Assembly (NCBI RefSeq): GCF_988243305.1
Contig: NZ_OZ547136.1
Length of the DNA stretch: 64,000 nt
Direction: 5' to 3' (one strand)
Positions 41,273-64,000 of the stretch are shown here, in pieces; the stretch's first letter is position 1; every line of letters starts with the position of its first letter. The notes under the pieces are model-generated. The model made no database searches. It was not told the origin of the DNA and was given only the letters and a program-made list of their open reading frames with translations. A program made the translations under genes and the position numbers.

Positions 41273-41839
41273 TCAGAAGTGAGGGTTACGAGGACGCCCT
41301 GCAGCAGGACGTTCAGGAACTTCATTGCAGCCGTAGGCACACAGCCCGTCTTTTTGCTCTTCTTTTGCCAGATAATGCAGGGCACCGCGAATATTATCGA
41401 TGCTTTCAGGATCGTTGTGGCGCACAGGAATGTTGATGTTGTATGTATAATGCGGCTGATATGTACAGCGGTGTGCCGAACCGCTGTTATGTGTAATAGA
41501 CCGCCAGCATTCCGTAATCCGCTCCGCAAAGGGATATATTTTTTTAACCCTCTGACGATCGATCCACAAAACCGCATGCGCATGAAAACCATGATCAGCC
41601 GTCCATTCAATCACCCAGAAGAAACCAACGATATTTTCAAATTGTTCCACCTGCTCCAGCAGCATACGCAACTGCAATTCAAGCCAGCGATGATCAGGTT
41701 GTAAGAAATCGGGCGTATCTTTCCTGTAGAAGAAATCCATCCGTAAGGCCCGCAGGCAGGAATAGCGTGCCATCATTTGATTGATGTGATTGTCAAGTAA
41801 AGCGGTAAAAAACCAGTTTGGTGTGTAAGATTTAGGCAT
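41273..41839 (-). CDS. YfjJ/YagK-family prophage protein, paralog 2
   Basis: 188-aa ORF with HAHAVLWI motif. Confidence 0.55.
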   Translation of the reverse strand: MPKSYTPNWFFTALLDNHINQMMARYSCLRALRMDFFYRKDTPDFLQPDHRWLELQLRMLLEQVEQFENIVGFFWVIEWTADHGFHAHAVLWIDRQRVKKIYPFAERITECWRSITHNSGSAHRCTYQPHYTYNINIPVRHNDPESIDNIRGALHYLAKEEQKDGLCAYGCNEVPERPAAGRPRNPHF

Positions 41840-48976: not shown

Positions 48977-49708
48977 TCACCTGCCATCCAGTAGACGCCC
49001 CGGCCCACGACTGCAACCATAATTACGTTGCCCGGAACCGTCATGCTGCTTCGTCTCATATTTCACGAGATAACTGGCTCTGTTCCGGGCTTTCTGCAGC
49101 GCTTCCACATCACCACGCTTGATCCAGAGCACAGCGGCTTCACCTGGCTTTTTGTCTGAAGCCTTCCTGGTATCAGAACATCCACCCGACAAAGGCGTGT
49201 CATCGGAAGAAGGGCGAGCATCAGACGATGTCGGTTTACGGGAAGGCGTCCACCTGGAAAAATGGACCAGGCCATCGCCTTGCCAGGGCTCAAGATGCAG
49301 GGCGCTGCACCATGCCTCCTGGATCATCGTCGCCAGCGAAGACGGTTCGCTGAAATCCCCGAGCGAGCACCAGGTATCTTTGTTGAGCAGTAATATCACG
49401 TGATAATGTTTCCTGCCATACATCTTGCCGAACTCCCGGCACCAGAAATAACGCAGGCTGGTTGCATGCACACGCTGATTGGCCCATCTTTTTTTCCGCT
49501 GGTAAGCCTGAATTTTGGCTTTCAGGGATGCGAAAAAACGGGAAATCACCGCTGAATCCGGATCGGGATCCATGATGGTGACAGGCATATACTCAGGGAA
49601 ACGTAAATCCACCCGGATTAACGAGACGGCACGGTGTTGCACCAGGGCACTGTTGAGAATACTTTCAAAACGGGATAACCAGTAATCATTGTGTATTGGT
49701 TGATTCAT
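48977..49708 (-). CDS. YfjJ/YagK-family prophage protein, paralog 3 (full length)
   Basis: 243-aa ORF with HYHVILLL motif; conserved leader immediately upstream. Confidence 0.6.
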   Translation of the reverse strand: MNQPIHNDYWLSRFESILNSALVQHRAVSLIRVDLRFPEYMPVTIMDPDPDSAVISRFFASLKAKIQAYQRKKRWANQRVHATSLRYFWCREFGKMYGRKHYHVILLLNKDTWCSLGDFSEPSSLATMIQEAWCSALHLEPWQGDGLVHFSRWTPSRKPTSSDARPSSDDTPLSGGCSDTRKASDKKPGEAAVLWIKRGDVEALQKARNRASYLVKYETKQHDGSGQRNYGCSRGPGRLLDGR

Positions 49709-50377
49709 GATGAGAGATCTCCGTTGATTTGGATTGACTTCACATCATTAATCACTGCGGTAAAACTTTACGGCATCCCGCCATTGAGCAACGCCAATGG
49801 CTCCTGATTAAAACAGAATGAATCGTCCCGTAACGAAAAGATAATCCTGCACACGACAGCAAAACGTAAAACAACAGCATGAATGAGCTAAATGTCTAAA
49901 GAAAAACTGCCTTTTCACATTATTTTTCAGCGAGTAATCATACCAGCATCCCTAACATACGAAATCGCATCGTGATCGATCGCTGATTCGCCGAACAACT
50001 GATCGAATACACCGGAATCTGCACTAACATCCTGATGGGTAACGGAAGACTAAAAAACCAGTGTTCTATTGATTGCACGGAATGCCTGTGCGCTGGCCTG
50101 ACCAGTAAGCACAATTCTACGAGTAGTAAGATATCTACTCCAAAACCATGCGCAGTAGCCACCATATGTTGCCAGGGTGAAAAATAAGCTCAGAGCTATA
50201 GGGGAGTAATTCCCGTTAATGTCATCGCCGTACCTCAATCAGCTCACAAACTGGCTGAAACGTTAAGCTGAGGCCTTTATTCTTCAGATGTATTTTCCGG
50301 TTTACCTGTAAATTATCTTCTGATATTTATCACATTAGTAATTGTGCTGATTATCTACATACTTCAAGGTCTGAAAT

Positions 50378-50908
50378 ATGAAGCTAACAGAAGAAAGTCT
50401 GAATCTAGTCATTGACATCCTGAATGATTTGATCTGTGAAGGAAAAATGCTGAACGATGTGGAGCGCAGATCTCTGCTCAATGCAGTTATGGCAATTACA
50501 GCGGTAAAAGAACGTTCTGTCGTATCTGTATCATCCCGAAAAGAGCAAAGTAAGAAGGAGAAGAAGGAAAGAGAGATCGATCCTCGTTTCCCAAATGCTG
50601 GTGTGGCATGGAATGAGGCAGACGAGAGTTTATTGCGAGATGTTCTGGAGGATGTACCGGACGATGAAATTGGTAAACACCTTTTCTGGCTAGCAGAGAA
50701 ACTAGGGCGAACCCCGTACAGTGTAGCCTGTAAAGTCAGACAAATTAAGAAATTACCTGCAGAATGGAAGGATCAATTTCGTAAAATCTCTGACAGGATC
50801 CGTAGTTCTGGAATGTCAGTCAGTGAATATCTACAACGCCAGGGACTGTTAAGCCCAGAGTCAGGGGAAGAAAACAATCCTGTCAGTCATAACAACAATG
50901 TAGCTTAA
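50378..50908 (+). CDS. Hypothetical protein (176 aa), possible DNA-binding
   Basis: Intact ORF with plausible RBS; charged low-complexity linker; no confident family. Confidence 0.45.
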   Translation: MKLTEESLNLVIDILNDLICEGKMLNDVERRSLLNAVMAITAVKERSVVSVSSRKEQSKKEKKEREIDPRFPNAGVAWNEADESLLRDVLEDVPDDEIGKHLFWLAEKLGRTPYSVACKVRQIKKLPAEWKDQFRKISDRIRSSGMSVSEYLQRQGLLSPESGEENNPVSHNNNVA

Positions 50909-52070
50909 TCCTGAAGAAGATGAACAGTTTATACTCTTTAAACTGTTCCCTTAATTTTAGAAAAACAGTTTGTGTAAGTGCATGCTCCAACATTCTGAAG
51001 GCGTTATTTCTTACAATACATCATAATCATTGGCAGATCCTCATCTGAATCAAAACACCACAACCAATCATCACACTTTTTCTGAAAAGAGCCTTATGAT
51101 GAAGATAATCACCTTACGCTGAGAAAAAACACCAGGGCCAGTTAATCACCTTATCAATCTCGCCGTTACAAAATCATCCATAAGCCATTTAACAGTGTTA
51201 TCGCAAACTCACAGTAAATCGCATCAGGTTACCTCAATCGGATTTGAGTTAATTCACTGGGCTTTACGTAAAGATACTTTTCTCAGGTTAACGACTAAAA
51301 CACGAAAACTCAGAAAAGGTTAAACACAGGTTCAGTAAAATCGAATATCATCTTGATTGCTTAAACAGGACAGAGGGTTTTGTAGTGAGGTTAACTGATT
51401 TTAGCGATCGTAAAAAAAGGACTAACAAATTTACTAAACTGGATGTGTTTCAGACAAAGCAATGTGTACAGCAATGCTTAATGAAAATACTTGTATGATT
51501 GTCTATGAAAATGCGTGTATAACACTTAGTGAAGATATGTCTGTATAATACGTATATAGTACCATTCCCGACATTCTCAATATCTTCAGACATCCATGCA
51601 GACTGAGTGTTGATTTCAGTTTTTCACGGCCAGCATGGATCTTTACTGGTCAAAAAACAGACAGGTTTACTCTGGAATTATTTTTTTGATTCCGTCTTCA
51701 GAACAACAAAAACTCGTGATAACTCTACAACAAACTATCGTAATTGGCTTCTGTAACCCCGTCACTTTTCCTAAGAAACGTGCCCCCATATGATGCGGGA
51801 GAGATAAGTCATCGTATACAGGAAACACTGCCAATCATAATATGGCGTCATTCAGTAATTTTTATCCATAATCAGATTAGCATATCATGATTATTGAATA
51901 TTATGATATATAGCTCATATGAATGTGTTATTATCTGTAAGCGTTAAGCATCACATTGCATAACCATACTAAGCTGGCTAATCATCAACATTTTTATATG
52001 TAACTCATTGAAATTAATTATATGTTTTTTGTGAATAATTAATATGTAATGTGAAATTAATATTTTTACA

Positions 52071-53294
52071 TCATGAGCGCCATTTAAAATTACCATCCTG
52101 AATATCATATGACAATATATTTTCACTAAAGCATGAATTGTATATGTCTATTAACTCTGGAAAATTATCAGGATTCACCTTCAAATTCACTTGAATGTTA
52201 CGCTTAATTTCACCCAGCAGTTCTTCATGTGTGGATTTTATTATCCCTTTCTCATAATCGATAAATACACACATGTTCTTTATGAATTCAAAACCTTTTC
52301 CTGTATACAGTTTAATGAATGCCACCAGAGCAAACATTTCAAGATATAGCCATAATGCCACGTTAGTTTTTTGCAAAGTATAAAAAATTGAATTCGCCAC
52401 TCTTTTACTTATTGCTCTTTTATACTGTGATCGAGCAAGATTCAGTAGCGGAAGCTCTCGTTCAATAAATGAATGTGAAAAGACTGGATAAATTGATGTA
52501 GGAAACCTTTCAGGTCTTATGATATTTTCTATTTCCACCATAAATCTATCCATAGAAAGAAAGTCACTTTCTTTTTTTATTCTGGTATAGAGACCGCCTT
52601 TATTTCTTTCTGAGGTTTGTTTTCGTGCTATCCCCCCCAACACTTTCTCTAATTGTTTATTTATCTTCGTATAATTAAATACAACCATTCTTCTTATCAT
52701 CCTCGGAAGGATAATAATATCAGTGCTTGAATCACTTGAGCGGCAATTATTATTTATCCATGCAACTTCAAGTTGCAGTATCGGAACATTAACTTTTCTG
52801 GGGTGAATATCTCTCTGATATCGTTTTTTGTATGCGTTTTCATTAAGATATTCTCTGCTGTAGAGAAACTTATAGCAATATAATCTGATAATATCTTTTA
52901 TGTAAAATTTAAATAGTTCACCTGTAACAGATATATGTTTTCTGCTCAGTAACTCCTGTGTATTAAGCCATTCCCGTGACCGAAGCACACCCTTGTGAAA
53001 ACTTTTTCTTACTTGCTTTGAAGCACGCCATTGATGTAATATTTTTGCGTCCTCAATAATTCTCTTTCCCGTTTTATTTTTTGCAGCATCTCTTACTCTA
53101 TAAAATATCTCCCAGTCCAGACTTTTGTCATATCTACTAATTATACGACAAATATTCCTGACCCGACGATTCTCTTTATTTCGCTTCCATAGCTTATAAT
53201 GATCATCGCATAACCTTAAGGCATTTGCCTCATCAAATTCTGAAACAGGATTACTGCATTTTTTATTCCGACAGATACCTTTGTTTTTAGCCAT
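52071..53294 (-). CDS. Hypothetical Cys-rich protein (407 aa) encoded in strongly AT-rich DNA; orphan cargo gene
   Basis: Long intact ORF with RBS; N-terminal putative zinc-binding motif CRNKKCSNP...CDDH; no recognised domain; divergent from yfjP-like gene. Confidence 0.6.
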   Translation of the reverse strand: MAKNKGICRNKKCSNPVSEFDEANALRLCDDHYKLWKRNKENRRVRNICRIISRYDKSLDWEIFYRVRDAAKNKTGKRIIEDAKILHQWRASKQVRKSFHKGVLRSREWLNTQELLSRKHISVTGELFKFYIKDIIRLYCYKFLYSREYLNENAYKKRYQRDIHPRKVNVPILQLEVAWINNNCRSSDSSTDIIILPRMIRRMVVFNYTKINKQLEKVLGGIARKQTSERNKGGLYTRIKKESDFLSMDRFMVEIENIIRPERFPTSIYPVFSHSFIERELPLLNLARSQYKRAISKRVANSIFYTLQKTNVALWLYLEMFALVAFIKLYTGKGFEFIKNMCVFIDYEKGIIKSTHEELLGEIKRNIQVNLKVNPDNFPELIDIYNSCFSENILSYDIQDGNFKWRS

Positions 53295-53394
53295 ACTCTT
53301 CTTCCCGTCAATGGAAAAATTTTCACACCCATATTACCTGAATGATAAACCGGATTAGTGTGATCCGGTTCAGTGAAATCAACAGGATACCGGT

Positions 53395-54279
53395 ATGCCA
53401 TTCAGCAATTCTTCCCTCTCCGCGCAAGTGAAATCATATCTGACGTTTCTTCCTGAAGAAATTCGCCAGAAAATCCTTGAACATCTCCACGGTGTTATTC
53501 ATTACGAGCCCGTGATTGGCATTATGGGTAAATCCGGCACCGGCAAAAGCAGTCTGTGTAATGCCATTTTTCAGTCCCGTATCTGCGCCACGCATCCCCT
53601 GAACGGCTGCACCCGCCAGGCTCATCGCCTCACCCTGCAGATTGGTGAACGCAGAATGACGCTGGTCGATCTGCCCGGCATTGGTGAGACACCGCAGCAT
53701 GATCAGGAATACCGGGAGCTTTACCGTCAGTTACTGCCGGAACTGGATCTGATTATCTGGATCCTGCGGGCTGATGAACGTGCGTATGCTGCCGATATTG
53801 CCATGCATCAGTTTTTACTGAATGAAGGTGCAGATCCCTCGCGTTTTCTGTTTGTTCTCAGCCATGCCGATCGCGTGTTTCCTGCTGAAGAATGGAATGC
53901 CACAGAAAAATGCCCATCCCGTCACCAGGAACTCTCACTGGCAACTGTTACAGCCAGGGTGGCAACCCTGTTCCCGTCATCATTTCCGGTACTCCCCGTT
54001 GCTGCGCCTGTCGGCTGGAATCTTCCGGCGTTTGTGTCGCTGATGATCCACGCCCTGCCACCGCAGGCAACCAGTGCGGTTTATTCACATATCCGGGGGG
54101 AAAACCGCTCTGAACAGGCCCAGAAACACGCACAACAGACTTTTGGTGACGCCATCGGGAAAAGTTTTGACGACGCCGTTGCCCGGTTCACTTTTCCGGT
54201 CTGGATGTTACAGCTTCTGCGTAAAGCCCGGGACCGCATTATCCGCCTGCTAGAAACACTGTGGGATCGTCTGTTCTGA
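53395..54279 (+). CDS. YfjP/YkfA-family prophage GTPase
   Basis: 294-aa ORF with P-loop GKSGTGKSSLCNAIF and DLPGIGE switch region. Confidence 0.8.
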   Translation: MPFSNSSLSAQVKSYLTFLPEEIRQKILEHLHGVIHYEPVIGIMGKSGTGKSSLCNAIFQSRICATHPLNGCTRQAHRLTLQIGERRMTLVDLPGIGETPQHDQEYRELYRQLLPELDLIIWILRADERAYAADIAMHQFLLNEGADPSRFLFVLSHADRVFPAEEWNATEKCPSRHQELSLATVTARVATLFPSSFPVLPVAAPVGWNLPAFVSLMIHALPPQATSAVYSHIRGENRSEQAQKHAQQTFGDAIGKSFDDAVARFTFPVWMLQLLRKARDRIIRLLETLWDRLF

Positions 54280-59275: not shown

Positions 59276-59597
59276 ATGAAAACATTACCCGACACGCATG
59301 TACGGGAGGTATCGTGCTGCCCGTCTCCCGTCACCATCTGGCAGACACTGCTCACCCGGTTACTGGACCAGCATTACAGCCTTACGCTGAATGACACACC
59401 GTTCGCCGATGAACGTGTGATTGAGCAGCATATTGAGGCAGGTATTGCACTGTGTGATGCGGTGAACTTTCTCGTGGAAAAATACGCACTGGTACGAACC
59501 GACCAGCCGGGATTCAGCGCAGGAACTTCGTCGCAGTTAATCAACAGCATTGATATTCTCCGGGCACGCCGGGCAACAGGTCTGATGACCCGCAGCA
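59276..59597 (+). pseudogene. CbtA/YeeV/YpjF-family toxin gene, 3'-truncated by IS10 insertion
   Basis: MKTLP...[29 protein letters not shown] matches CbtA family; reading frame runs into IS10 outside end at 59598. Confidence 0.75.
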
Positions 59598-60926
59598 CTG
59601 ATGAATCCCCTAATGATTTTTATCAAAATCATTAAGTTAAGGTAGATACACATCTTGTCATATGATCAAATGGTTTCGCCAAAAATCAATAATCAGACAA
59701 CAAGATGTGCGAACTCGATATTTTACACGACTCTCTTTACCAATTCTGCCCCGAATTACACTTAAAACGACTCAACAGCTTAACGTTGGCTTGCCACGCA
59801 TTACTTGACTGTAAAACTCTCACTCTTACCGAACTTGGCCGTAACCTGCCAACCAAAGCGAGAACAAAACATAACATCAAACGAATCGACCGATTGTTAG
59901 GTAATCGTCACCTCCACAAAGAGCGACTCGCTGTATACCGTTGGCATGCTAGCTTTATCTGTTCGGGCAATACGATGCCCATTGTACTTGTTGACTGGTC
60001 TGATATTCGTGAGCAAAAACGACTTATGGTATTGCGAGCTTCAGTCGCACTACACGGTCGTTCTGTTACTCTTTATGAGAAAGCGTTCCCGCTTTCAGAG
60101 CAATGTTCAAAGAAAGCTCATGACCAATTTCTAGCCGACCTTGCGAGCATTCTACCGAGTAACACCACACCGCTCATTGTCAGTGATGCTGGCTTTAAAG
60201 TGCCATGGTATAAATCCGTTGAGAAGCTGGGTTGGTACTGGTTAAGTCGAGTAAGAGGAAAAGTACAATATGCAGACCTAGGAGCGGAAAACTGGAAACC
60301 TATCAGCAACTTACATGATATGTCATCTAGTCACTCAAAGACTTTAGGCTATAAGAGGCTGACTAAAAGCAATCCAATCTCATGCCAAATTCTATTGTAT
60401 AAATCTCGCTCTAAAGGCCGAAAAAATCAGCGCTCGACACGGACTCATTGTCACCACCCGTCACCTAAAATCTACTCAGCGTCGGCAAAGGAGCCATGGG
60501 TTCTAGCAACTAACTTACCTGTTGAAATTCGAACACCCAAACAACTTGTTAATATCTATTCGAAGCGAATGCAGATTGAAGAAACCTTCCGAGACTTGAA
60601 AAGTCCTGCCTACGGACTAGGCCTACGCCATAGCCGAACGAGCAGCTCAGAGCGTTTTGATATCATGCTGCTAATCGCCCTGATGCTTCAACTAACATGT
60701 TGGCTTGCGGGCGTTCATGCTCAGAAACAAGGTTGGGACAAGCACTTCCAGGCTAACACAGTCAGAAATCGAAACGTACTCTCAACAGTTCGCTTAGGCA
60801 TGGAAGTTTTGCGGCATTCTGGCTACACAATAACAAGGGAAGACTTACTCGTGGCTGCAACCCTACTAGCTCAAAATTTATTCACACATGGTTACGCTTT
60901 GGGGAAATTATGAGGGGATCTCCTTA
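59598..60926 (+). mobile_element. IS10 (Tn10 flanking copy), outside end at 59598
   Basis: Outside-end sequence CTGATGAATCCCCTAATGATTTTTATCAAAATCATTAAG; 1329-bp span; inner terminus reads GGGGATCTCC rather than the inside end as I recall it. Confidence 0.85.
59705..60913 (+). CDS. IS10 transposase
   Basis: 402-aa ORF matching IS10 transposase (MCELDILHDSLYQFCPELHLKRLNSL...). Confidence 0.9.
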   Translation: MCELDILHDSLYQFCPELHLKRLNSLTLACHALLDCKTLTLTELGRNLPTKARTKHNIKRIDRLLGNRHLHKERLAVYRWHASFICSGNTMPIVLVDWSDIREQKRLMVLRASVALHGRSVTLYEKAFPLSEQCSKKAHDQFLADLASILPSNTTPLIVSDAGFKVPWYKSVEKLGWYWLSRVRGKVQYADLGAENWKPISNLHDMSSSHSKTLGYKRLTKSNPISCQILLYKSRSKGRKNQRSTRTHCHHPSPKIYSASAKEPWVLATNLPVEIRTPKQLVNIYSKRMQIEETFRDLKSPAYGLGLRHSRTSSSERFDIMLLIALMLQLTCWLAGVHAQKQGWDKHFQANTVRNRNVLSTVRLGMEVLRHSGYTITREDLLVAATLLAQNLFTHGYALGKL

Positions 60927-61926
<1,000 letters not shown>

Positions 61927-61941
61927 CTAATTTTTGTTGAC

Positions 61942-61990
61942 ACTCTATCATTGATAGAGTTATTTTACCACTCCCTATCAGTGATAGAGA
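61942..61990. promoter_or_regulatory. tet operators in divergent tetR-tetA promoter region
   Basis: Palindromes ACTCTATCATTGATAGAGT and TCCCTATCAGTGATAGAGA between tetR and tetA starts. Confidence 0.9.
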
Positions 61991-61998
61991 AAAGTGAA

Positions 61999-63204
61999 AT
62001 GAATAGTTCGACAAAGATCGCATTGGTAATTACGTTACTCGATGCCATGGGGATTGGCCTTATCATGCCAGTCTTGCCAACGTTATTACGTGAATTTATT
62101 GCTTCGGAAGATATCGCTAACCACTTTGGCGTATTGCTTGCACTTTATGCGTTAATGCAGGTTATCTTTGCTCCTTGGCTTGGAAAAATGTCTGACCGAT
62201 TTGGTCGGCGCCCAGTGCTGTTGTTGTCATTAATAGGCGCATCGCTGGATTACTTATTGCTGGCTTTTTCAAGTGCGCTTTGGATGCTGTATTTAGGCCG
62301 TTTGCTTTCAGGGATCACAGGAGCTACTGGGGCTGTCGCGGCATCGGTCATTGCCGATACCACCTCAGCTTCTCAACGCGTGAAGTGGTTCGGTTGGTTA
62401 GGGGCAAGTTTTGGGCTTGGTTTAATAGCGGGGCCTATTATTGGTGGTTTTGCAGGAGAGATTTCACCGCATAGTCCCTTTTTTATCGCTGCGTTGCTAA
62501 ATATTGTCGCTTTCCTTGTGGTTATGTTTTGGTTCCGTGAAACCAAAAATACACGTGATAATACAGATACCGAAGTAGGGGTTGAGACGCAATCGAATTC
62601 GGTATACATCACTTTATTTAAAACGATGCCCATTTTGTTGATTATTTATTTTTCAGCGCAATTGATAGGCCAAATTCCCGCAACGGTGTGGGTGCTATTT
62701 ACCGAAAATCGTTTTGGATGGAATAGCATGATGGTTGGCTTTTCATTAGCGGGTCTTGGTCTTTTACACTCAGTATTCCAAGCCTTTGTGGCAGGAAGAA
62801 TAGCCACTAAATGGGGCGAAAAAACGGCAGTACTGCTCGGATTTATTGCAGATAGTAGTGCATTTGCCTTTTTAGCGTTTATATCTGAAGGTTGGTTAGT
62901 TTTCCCTGTTTTAATTTTATTGGCTGGTGGTGGGATCGCTTTACCTGCATTACAGGGAGTGATGTCTATCCAAACAAAGAGTCATCAGCAAGGTGCTTTA
63001 CAGGGATTATTGGTGAGCCTTACCAATGCAACCGGTGTTATTGGCCCATTACTGTTTGCTGTTATTTATAATCATTCACTACCAATTTGGGATGGCTGGA
63101 TTTGGATTATTGGTTTAGCGTTTTACTGTATTATTATCCTGCTATCGATGACCTTCATGTTAACCCCTCAAGCTCAGGGGAGTAAACAGGAGACAAGTGC
63201 TTAG
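61999..63204 (+). CDS. tetA: Tetracycline efflux MFS transporter TetA class B
   Basis: 401-aa ORF starting MNSSTKIALVITLLDAMGIGLIMPVLPTLL; matches TetA(B). Confidence 0.95.
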   Translation: MNSSTKIALVITLLDAMGIGLIMPVLPTLLREFIASEDIANHFGVLLALYALMQVIFAPWLGKMSDRFGRRPVLLLSLIGASLDYLLLAFSSALWMLYLGRLLSGITGATGAVAASVIADTTSASQRVKWFGWLGASFGLGLIAGPIIGGFAGEISPHSPFFIAALLNIVAFLVVMFWFRETKNTRDNTDTEVGVETQSNSVYITLFKTMPILLIIYFSAQLIGQIPATVWVLFTENRFGWNSMMVGFSLAGLGLLHSVFQAFVAGRIATKWGEKTAVLLGFIADSSAFAFLAFISEGWLVFPVLILLAGGGIALPALQGVMSIQTKSHQQGALQGLLVSLTNATGVIGPLLFAVIYNHSLPIWDGWIWIIGLAFYCIIILLSMTFMLTPQAQGSKQETSA

Positions 63205-63316
63205 TTATTTCGTCACCAAATGATGTTATTCCGCGAAATATAATGACCCTCTTGATAACCCAAGAGGGCATTTTTTACGATAAAGAAGATTTAGCTTCAA
63301 ATAAAACCTATCTATT

Positions 63317-63910
63317 TTATTTATCTTTCAAGCTCAATAAAAAGCCGCGGTAAATAGCAATAAATTGGCCTTTTTTATCGGCAAGCTCTTTTAGGTTTTT
63401 CGCATGTATTGCGATATGCATAAACCAGCCATTGAGTAAGTTTTTAAGCACATCATCATCATAAGCTTTAAGTTGGTTCTCTTGGATCAATTTGCTGACA
63501 ATGGCGTTTACCTTACCAGTAATGTATTCAAGGCTAATTTTTTCAAGTTCATTCCAACCAATGATAGGCATCACTTCTTGGATAGGGATAAGGTTTTTAT
63601 TATTATCAATAATATAATCAAGATAATGTTCAAATATACTTTCTAAGGCAGACCAACCATTTGTTAAATCAGTTTTTGTTGTGATGTAGGCATCAATCAT
63701 AATTAATTGCTGCTTATAACAGGCACTGAGTAATTGTTTTTTATTTTTAAAGTGATGATAAAAGGCACCTTTGGTCACCAACGCTTTTCCCGAGATCTCA
63801 TCTATTGAAACAGCTTGATAGCCTTTTTCAACAAACAATATTCGTGCTGAGTTAACCAGTGATTGATAGGTACTCTTAAAATTTTCTTGTTGATGATTTT
63901 TATTTTCCAT
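63317..63910 (-). CDS. tetC: Tn10 TetC (TetR-family regulator)
   Basis: 197-aa ORF from MENKNHQQ; position and orientation downstream of tetA as in Tn10. Confidence 0.8.
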   Translation of the reverse strand: MENKNHQQENFKSTYQSLVNSARILFVEKGYQAVSIDEISGKALVTKGAFYHHFKNKKQLLSACYKQQLIMIDAYITTKTDLTNGWSALESIFEHYLDYIIDNNKNLIPIQEVMPIIGWNELEKISLEYITGKVNAIVSKLIQENQLKAYDDDVLKNLLNGWFMHIAIHAKNLKELADKKGQFIAIYRGFLLSLKDK

Positions 63911-64000
63911 GATAGATTTAAAATAACATACCGTCAGTATGTTTATGGTATCATGATGATGTGGTCGTGACAATCTTAAGAACATTTAGGTTATTTTATG

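Follow-up and report, generated by a model that had tools for sequence, protein, structure and literature searches.

CP4-57-type islands carry genes in the order intA-alpA-yfjI-yfjJ...yfjP-yfjQ-yfjR, with an antirestriction-RadC-CbeA/CbtA module further on. Elements composed of an integrase, an excisionase, an HUH gene, cargo and a RadC/ArdB/CbtA "moron" module are possibly satellite-like and have been proposed to be moved by phages (PMC12458937), and a comparable element class in Pseudomonas is moved by a jumbo phage (PMC12595487). Here we analyze one gene of a CP4-57-like island in a stretch of 64,000 nucleotides (nt) of contig NZ_OZ547136.1 (RefSeq assembly GCF_988243305.1), the whole of which is referred to as the window. 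The gene, termed X, lies at 52071..53294 on the minus strand, begins with an ATG start codon and encodes a protein of 407 amino acids. The identical sequence from Escherichia coli NCTC86 is annotated in RefSeq as a hypothetical protein (WP_001107219.1). X is one allele of an undescribed, fast-diverging family whose members stand next to a conserved GTPase gene, at one and the same position, in about one third of E. coli genomes.

The genes of the window are in the order expected for a CP4-57-type island, the kind of element in which the original prediction, made from the letters of the window, had placed X. Features of the CP4-57-like class that are present include an HUH (Gp2/YfjJ-like) gene and the terminal antirestriction-RadC-CbeA/CbtA module, together with genes for a YfjP GTPase, a WYL regulator and DUF932. 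The matching island of NCTC86 contains genes for an inovirus-Gp2-family (YfjJ-like) protein, the GTPase, a WYL-type helix-turn-helix (HTH) regulator, DUF905, DUF932, an antirestriction protein, JAB/RadC, DUF987, YeeU/CbtA (CbeA/CbtA) and DUF4942. An integrase pseudogene, adjacent to cadC, comes after them. CP4-57 of strain K-12 differs in having no relative of X, and homology of X to K-12 YfjH, YfjI and YfjW was rejected after comparison of the sequences. Moreover, X-type elements have alpA and the HUH gene pointing away from the GTPase gene, with X in between, and the window contains neither alpA nor an integrase gene. An intact mobility set was not found: the integrase gene is a pseudogene in NCTC86, no alpA remnant was detected in the window, and there was no tRNA gene in the window or at the related E. 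coli locus L001. The E. coli island looks composite and immobilized. The best explanation of the findings taken together is that X is a functional backbone gene of CP4-57-like integrative islands (integrase/AlpA/HUH-Gp2/YfjP GTPase/"moron" module), not free cargo.

The X protein and its family

The base composition of the X coding strand (A 0.38, T 0.29, G 0.20, C 0.13) leads one to expect a stop codon every 12 codons, and the chance of 407 codons without a stop is about 2e-16. The GC content of X is 0.334 (0.287 at third codon positions), compared with 0.533 for the adjacent GTPase gene and a window mean of 0.474, so that the open reading frame (ORF) is strongly AT-rich relative to its neighbors (33% versus ~53% GC), as originally described. 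The ratio of nonsynonymous to synonymous substitution rates (dN/dS) was 0.26-0.28 between alleles of the class to which X belongs (class (a), see below) and 0.27 between alleles of class (c), while the adjacent GTPase gene gave 0.12-0.21. Because dN/dS is ~0.27 within allele classes, X is maintained for its product, and it is a real gene kept under selection.

The protein is basic, with an isoelectric point of 9.8 over its full length and 10.1 over residues 1-230. The cysteine cluster noticed near the N-terminus in the original prediction has the form C8-x4-C13-x15-C29-x2-H32 (codons 8-32, 53199..53273, minus strand) and is followed by a long basic helix. Its four putative zinc ligands are kept in all zinc-ribbon-bearing relatives that were aligned (alignments A1 and A2). 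H32 is the sole histidine within residues 1-86, and the HNH catalytic set is therefore absent. As judged from these sequences, the N-terminal module is a putative zinc ribbon rather than the active site of an HNH enzyme. The body of the protein that follows is predicted to be mostly helical. An AlphaFold2 model, computed from an alignment of 16 relatives (mean predicted local distance difference test score 78, predicted template modeling score 0.67), shows a small N-terminal zinc knuckle with two short strands, then a long helix (30-55) and further helical segments, a single short beta pair (175-179/193-197), and a helical C-terminal half.

The statement that X lacks a recognizable domain was borne out by profile searches. 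There was no match in Pfam, NCBIfam or PADLOC (PADLOC-DB v2.0.0, E<=1), and the best match in PHROGs had an E value of only 0.08. Fourteen superfamily members compared with the profile libraries gave nothing usable, and no HEPN, nuclease, TIR, Sir2 or membrane-disrupting domain was detected by Pfam in X or in these 14 proteins. A search of the sequences in the PDB with the family profile and with N-terminal fragments returned chance matches only. Foldseek comparison of the X model, suggested originally as a check on homology, gave no match in BFVD and, in AFDB50, uncharacterized proteins alone (from E. coli, Klebsiella, Salmonella, Serratia, Enterobacter, Providencia and Lelliottia). The predicted fold thus has no characterized structural relative. 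No relatives of X were present among phages (50,697 records), plasmids (72,556) or the sequences of IMG/VR, and neither these searches nor the structure searches pointed to a relationship with a housekeeping protein or a phage structural protein, a finding that would have spoken against the idea of X as a defence gene. A literature search found no mention of the X protein accessions and no phenotype ascribed to the gene.

Some of the AFDB50 relatives carry the automatic names "HNH endonuclease" or "Reverse transcriptase", which their sequences do not support. We rejected an HNH endonuclease identity for X, as there is no HNH match in Pfam, NCBIfam or PHROGs and the catalytic His plus the Asn/His of the beta-beta-alpha-metal fold are absent. 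The reverse transcriptase label, attached to a UniRef relative, was likewise discarded, with no RVT match in Pfam among the 14 superfamily members and no conserved YxDD in alignments A1 and A2. A PD-(D/E)xK-type nuclease, considered on account of the LEV...D-IILP strands, was dismissed since E176 and D192 are, as judged by eye, not conserved in the (b) and (c) alleles. Across the superfamily (alignment A2), W109, Y139, V177, P197, Y236, P282, L286 and E319 are invariant and R201 is nearly so. These residues are chiefly aromatic, aliphatic or proline, with no recurrent constellation of acids, bases or histidines, and X is apparently non-enzymatic, without a conserved set of catalytic residues.

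There is some similarity to the zinc-finger modules of phage "HNH endonuclease" families (phrog_1271), which are matched by residues 6-74 of a distant relative (locus L019) at E 6.5e-5. The motif ...N-x4-C-x2-H is like the latter part of the zinc site of HNH proteins. However, X itself has no HNH match and a single histidine in the region concerned, and the (b) alleles lack the whole module. The L019 (4451-5704)/P0033 subfamily has an additional second CxxC...C finger, and it is only there that the phage HNH-endonuclease PHROG was matched. In the metagenomic relative P0020, two zinc ribbons stand in tandem, the first like that of the (c)/L018 type. The N-terminal module is shuffled among members of the X family.

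X had originally been regarded as an orphan, which it is not. Only 16 matches came from a search of 5.8 billion clusters and only 25 from one of 1.84 billion representatives, but these included full-length relatives at 25-37% identity (Citrobacter, Klebsiella and others). A word-indexed profile search with the superfamily alignment added no further distant members. In Citrobacter sp. Cy232, K. michiganensis and two enterobacterial contigs, the X relative (26-37% identity) lies ~100 nt from a divergent YfjP-like GTPase gene. At these four loci alpA comes next after X on the same strand, followed by a Gp2/YfjJ-like gene in the three with enough sequence. The gene order in Trabulsiella is alpA-yfjI-X-GTPase, with all genes co-directional. 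In a wider survey with the GTPase as bait, which comprised 80 loci from Enterobacterales genomes, X-like genes were found at 6 loci, 5 of which are those with the closest GTPases (>=52% identity). The sixth is from Yersinia pekkanenii, where X is 2.5 kilobases (kb) from the GTPase gene. At every locus X is AT-rich (GC 0.28-0.365 versus 0.45-0.54 for the GTPase gene). Between genera, identity was 26-37% for X, 52-70% for the GTPase, 48-68% for the WYL regulator and 73-76% for DUF932. Because X is 26-37% identical where its neighbors are 48-76% identical, it has been inherited with the island backbone while diverging about twice as fast as they do. From the distribution of these matches, the X family and the wider superfamily are confined to islands of Enterobacterales, and they are unnamed in databases.

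Exchange of X alleles in E. coli

The gene to the right of X, which encodes a YfjP-family GTPase (53395..54279, plus strand; "GTPase family protein" or "YfjP family GTPase" in RefSeq, with Pfam MMR_HSR1 in orthologues), is divergent from X, as had been noted, with a spacer of 100 nt, and it accompanies all alleles of X. Pairwise blastn comparison of the window with five other loci (L009 and L012-L015) delimited a replaceable cassette of 1.6 kb (~51700..53319), which consists of X plus ~370 nt downstream. Relative to loci with the (b) and (c) alleles described below, identity is 95-97% from 53320 rightwards, none in 51700-53319, 70-82% in 51040-51700, none in 49886-51039, and 90-93% over the Gp2-like gene, which is conserved to this extent between elements with different X alleles. 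The right breakpoint, 53320, precedes the start codon of X by 25 nt, and since the breakpoints are at 53320 and ~51700, one upstream region is common to all alleles. No repeats or att-like sites were seen at the breakpoints.

Among the loci matching the conserved block at 51040-51700, eight from E. coli were inspected and showed three arrangements between this block and the GTPase gene. Type (a), as in the window, has the 407-residue gene. Type (b) has a gene for 310-328 residues in the same orientation, which lacks the zinc ribbon, plus a convergent gene for 262-269 residues. Type (c) has a gene for 376 residues. Remote homologues of X were present at all eight loci (BLASTP, alignment A2 and hidden Markov model matches). 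The type (c) protein and X have in common the zinc ribbon, internal motifs and a C-terminal LYNSFF...KW at ~20% identity. In type (b), the first ~95 residues are absent and the rest aligns to X, with AWKDTQRILKR facing REWLNTQELLSR, FMLIPRSIRRKV facing IIILPRMIRRMV, and GSLYEVLSKE facing GGLYTRIKKE. A hidden Markov model built from GTPase-adjacent relatives in other species, without any (a) sequence, matched X over its whole length at E 2.6e-23. The GTPases adjoining the three allele types are 94-95% identical.

The original view of this site as a variable cargo slot was thus half right. The slot is replaceable, identity changing from 95-97% to none between the breakpoints at 53320 and ~51700, but the occupants at 8 of 8 loci are homologues and not unrelated cargo. 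We rejected a mixed cargo or defence hotspot with unrelated occupants, since all three sampled junction types carry X homologues. By these alignments the site is a true replacement cassette in which, among the sampled occupants, the replaced item is always a version of the same protein.

Junction-specific queries of complete E. coli genomes identified type (a), in intact form, in 969 genomes, type (b) in 738 and type (c) in 461. The conserved 5' end of the GTPase gene was found at 2503 places in 1869 genomes, and the three types account for at least 87% of the GTPase places. About 34% of complete E. coli genomes (1865/5426) carry the GTPase junction, and 18% carry the (a) allele class. X marks a sharply bounded allele-exchange site in a very common and poorly understood island class, one that ferries defence, virulence and, in the window, tetracycline-resistance genes. 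X represents a new, unnamed protein superfamily, restricted to Enterobacterales and situated in an allele-exchange cassette of a common island type.

The additional gene of type (b) (L009 8207-8995, L012 6289-7098, L013 6218-7009) belongs to a second family, Y, for which homology to X was rejected on comparison. Y proteins (109-362 residues) are encoded by AT-rich genes that are co-directional with, and immediately upstream of, YfjP-family GTPase genes at 21 of the 80 Enterobacterales loci. Y is the commonest upstream neighbor of the more distant GTPases (survey loci L021-L095, with the GTPase gene at ~6001). The Y C-terminus is weakly similar to ribbon-helix-helix proteins. Y was present at all 4 loci with a zinc-less X and at none of the 13 with a zinc-ribbon X; in E. 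coli it occurs only alongside the zinc-less (b) allele. Y may stand in for the missing nucleic-acid-binding module of the (b) form of X, or the pattern may reflect a single historical event.

The spacer between X and the GTPase gene (53295..53394, alignment A6) is a divergent control region shared by the alleles. The octamer CATATTAC (53330-53337) does not vary among nine divergent loci, whose GTPases are down to ~50% identical. It reads TATATT on the plus strand and TAATAT on the minus strand, and may represent overlapping divergent -10 boxes. A generic sigma-70 scan found no site in the spacer, and fewer sites than in shuffled sequences. A GC-rich inverted repeat, AACCGGAT-N7-ATCCGGTT, lies at 53348-53370; in other genera the sequences differ but can still pair, although covariation is weak.

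Possible functions of X

The place of X is always where the GTPase-led operon meets the core module of the element, alpA/HUH/yfjI. We tentatively favor the interpretation that X, a basic protein, binds nucleic acid without acting as an enzyme and serves as a specificity or control factor. This reading is based on the position of the gene, the single upstream region, the allelic diversity among homologues, the zinc ribbon with its basic helix, and the absence of catalytic residues. In this role, X would use its zinc ribbon and basic helix to hold on to DNA or RNA in or close to the divergent control region or the adjacent repeat block, its variable helical body would recognize a changing partner, for instance a helper-phage or host protein, and the output would be control of the excision/replication and GTPase operons of the island itself.

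In its logic, though not in its sequence, such a factor would be like the master regulators of phage satellites. The Stl region of Staphylococcus aureus pathogenicity islands and the cI region of lambdoid phages are examples of a satellite master regulator and a temperate-phage immunity region, respectively. Like these regions, the X site is at a divergent control region and holds very dissimilar alleles between conserved flanks, and X has no enzymatic motif but a presumed nucleic-acid-binding N-terminus joined to a variable body. Unlike them, X has no HTH (none was found by Pfam in X or the 14 superfamily members) and no similarity in sequence or fold, and its control region is conserved rather than allele-specific. 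The zinc ribbon, the basic N-terminal part and the location at the divergent control region would be compatible with a repressor of the Stl kind.

Several points weigh against a control factor. None of the profile libraries recognized a DNA-binding domain in X, for which the zinc ribbon and charge are merely suggestive, and with no characterized relative of the fold, the proposed mechanism rests on position and evolutionary pattern. The operators of an allele-specific repressor would be expected to differ from one allele to another, but all alleles have the same conserved upstream region. The complementarity between zinc-less X and the extra gene may go back to one evolutionary event. Finally, X is kept in apparently immobilized islands (integrase pseudogene, alpA absent), which fits a benefit to the host, such as defence, at least as well. 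Should X nevertheless prove to be the control or specificity factor of the islands, it would reveal how these "cryptic prophages" are activated and which phages activate them.

A role in single-gene anti-phage defence or abortive infection, in which X would sense a phage through its variable helical body and block infection alone, seems unlikely to us. X shares with many immune genes the pattern of an AT-rich, island-borne, fast-diverging gene that is exchanged as a cassette between conserved flanks, purifying selection maintains it in islands that seem to be immobile, and it is absent from phages, plasmids and viral contigs. However, neither X nor the (b) and (c) alleles nor the (b) partner protein matched anything in PADLOC (0 matches), and X has no conserved catalytic or effector motif and no defence domain. 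Known hotspots hold unrelated systems, whereas the sampled occupants here are all homologues. Recognized defence cargo does occur nearby in related elements (type I restriction-modification, McrBC, TIR, BrxR, methyltransferases), but it lies beyond the HUH/Gp2 gene, while in other genera X sits with alpA, the HUH gene and yfjI; nearness to defence genes is in any case common to every backbone gene and hence does not discriminate. Naming X a defence gene is not justified by the present evidence. If it were an immune protein, it would be of a new, non-enzymatic kind.

It is quite improbable that X and the GTPase form a two-gene module, for defence or another function, with X as the variable sensor or adaptor and the YfjP-type GTPase as the constant output. 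Such a module would explain the strict adjacency of the two genes, which have a spacer of ~100 nt (185 nt in type (c)) throughout the subclade of GTPases that are at least 52% identical (L081, at 51%, is an exception), as well as the common divergent control region with its invariant octamer. Among the more distant YfjP GTPases, too, there is a variable, AT-rich neighbor upstream, namely Y. Yet pair co-variation is lacking, the 94-97%-identical GTPases being accompanied by X alleles of ~20% identity, and 74 of the 80 YfjP-family GTPases have no X-like gene beside them. In addition, a short contig has an X relative after a P4-type integrase gene and two small ORFs, and no GTPase gene within the 4.5 kb of available sequence.

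The GTPase has a weak, partial match to the LeoBC profile of the Eleos system in PADLOC (E 4e-7, residues 185-289 to profile positions 460-553 of 601), which hints at the dynamin-related GTPase family and would suit the two-gene idea. The match nevertheless covers only ~100 residues; the locus lacks a LeoA-like gene, and the Eleos profiles do not match X. Eleos needs both LeoA and LeoBC, and membership in this system was rejected. A literature search on YfjP, YeeP and YkfA found nothing functional. A more specific version of the two-gene idea, which we consider very doubtful, is that X and the GTPase constitute an unrecognized immune or phage-sensing module of CP4-57-like islands. In that case X would act as a sensor with a new fold, anchored by its zinc ribbon and exchanged as a cassette, its alleles (a, b+Y, c, d) would set phage specificity, and the dynamin-related GTPase would be the common effector.

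It is, like the two-gene module in general, quite improbable that X is a factor for helper exploitation, interference or anti-defence that binds a phage or host-defence protein and so favors spread or establishment of the island. Such a role would be in line with the satellite-like, phage-moved nature proposed for the element class (PMC12458937; PMC12595487), with the nearby module of antirestriction and RadC genes, and with the seemingly non-enzymatic, hypervariable character of X. Against it, X has no similarity to known anti-defence or satellite interference proteins, its transcription is directed away from the antirestriction module, and it is kept in islands without integrase and alpA.

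It is extremely improbable that X is a decaying or function-less selfish ORF persisting in an AT-rich patch, for although it has no known domain and is so AT-rich as to be likely silenced, its conservation over the full length across genera at 25-37% identity, its dN/dS of ~0.27, its 407 stop-free codons at 33% GC and its confident predicted structure all contradict this.

Non-coding sequence and other parts of the island

A terminator-like hairpin (51783..51801, minus strand), found by a pattern scan as a consensus match only, lies ~270 nt downstream of the X stop codon and is a possible 3' end of a monocistronic X transcript. The region beyond X (50909-52070) had been described as an ORF-free, AT-rich flank that might encode a small RNA. 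It contains no ORF longer than 60 amino acids, is unannotated in RefSeq and has a GC content of 0.342, but it is not featureless, because it includes a conserved block of the island backbone (51040..51700, alignment A5). A search of this 1.1-kb gap against Rfam gave no match and lent no support to a small RNA, and a degraded alpA was rejected for want of a significant tblastn match.

The block itself has no conserved ORF. Of 5426 complete E. coli genomes, 1865 (~34%) contain it, always without annotation. Its center in related loci consists of degenerate direct repeats in variable copy number (AAAACACTTAGTA / AYGTGTATA), which occupy 7402-7540 in L009, 5407-5605 in L012 and 5413-5578 in L013. 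The shortest version is that of the window, where the repeat motifs are not enriched. The array looks iteron-like and may be an origin or a protein-binding array near the HUH (Gp2-like) gene. The latter gene (inovirus Gp2/YfjJ-like, HUH-type, 48977..49708) is on the minus strand, as is X, and was identified by its RefSeq annotation and by matches to phrog_25019 and replication-initiator PHROGs.

Between the Gp2-like gene and the conserved block lies a second replaceable segment (49886-51039), seen in the type (a) loci L001 and L010 and not in L011. An ORF at 50378-50908 on the plus strand encodes a hypothetical protein of 176 amino acids (WP_000778605.1), for which a faint match to a D5-like regulator PHROG was the only one found. 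It is followed by a bidirectional terminator-like hairpin with a 10-bp stem (50922-50948).

The island has a composite appearance on a larger scale as well, with two Gp2/YfjJ-like genes (41273-41839 and 48977-49708) bracketing a metabolic block that encodes a sugar kinase, a NupC-type nucleoside transporter, pseudouridine glycosidase and kinase, and an acyltransferase. At the other end, directly after the CbtA-like toxin gene (59276-59635), the window carries a Tn10-type tetracycline-resistance insertion (59705-63985), which is absent from the matching NCTC86 locus. Its parts are an IS4-family (IS10-like) transposase gene (59705-60913) and the genes for TetR (61294-61920), Tet(B) (61951-63204) and TetC (63317-63985).

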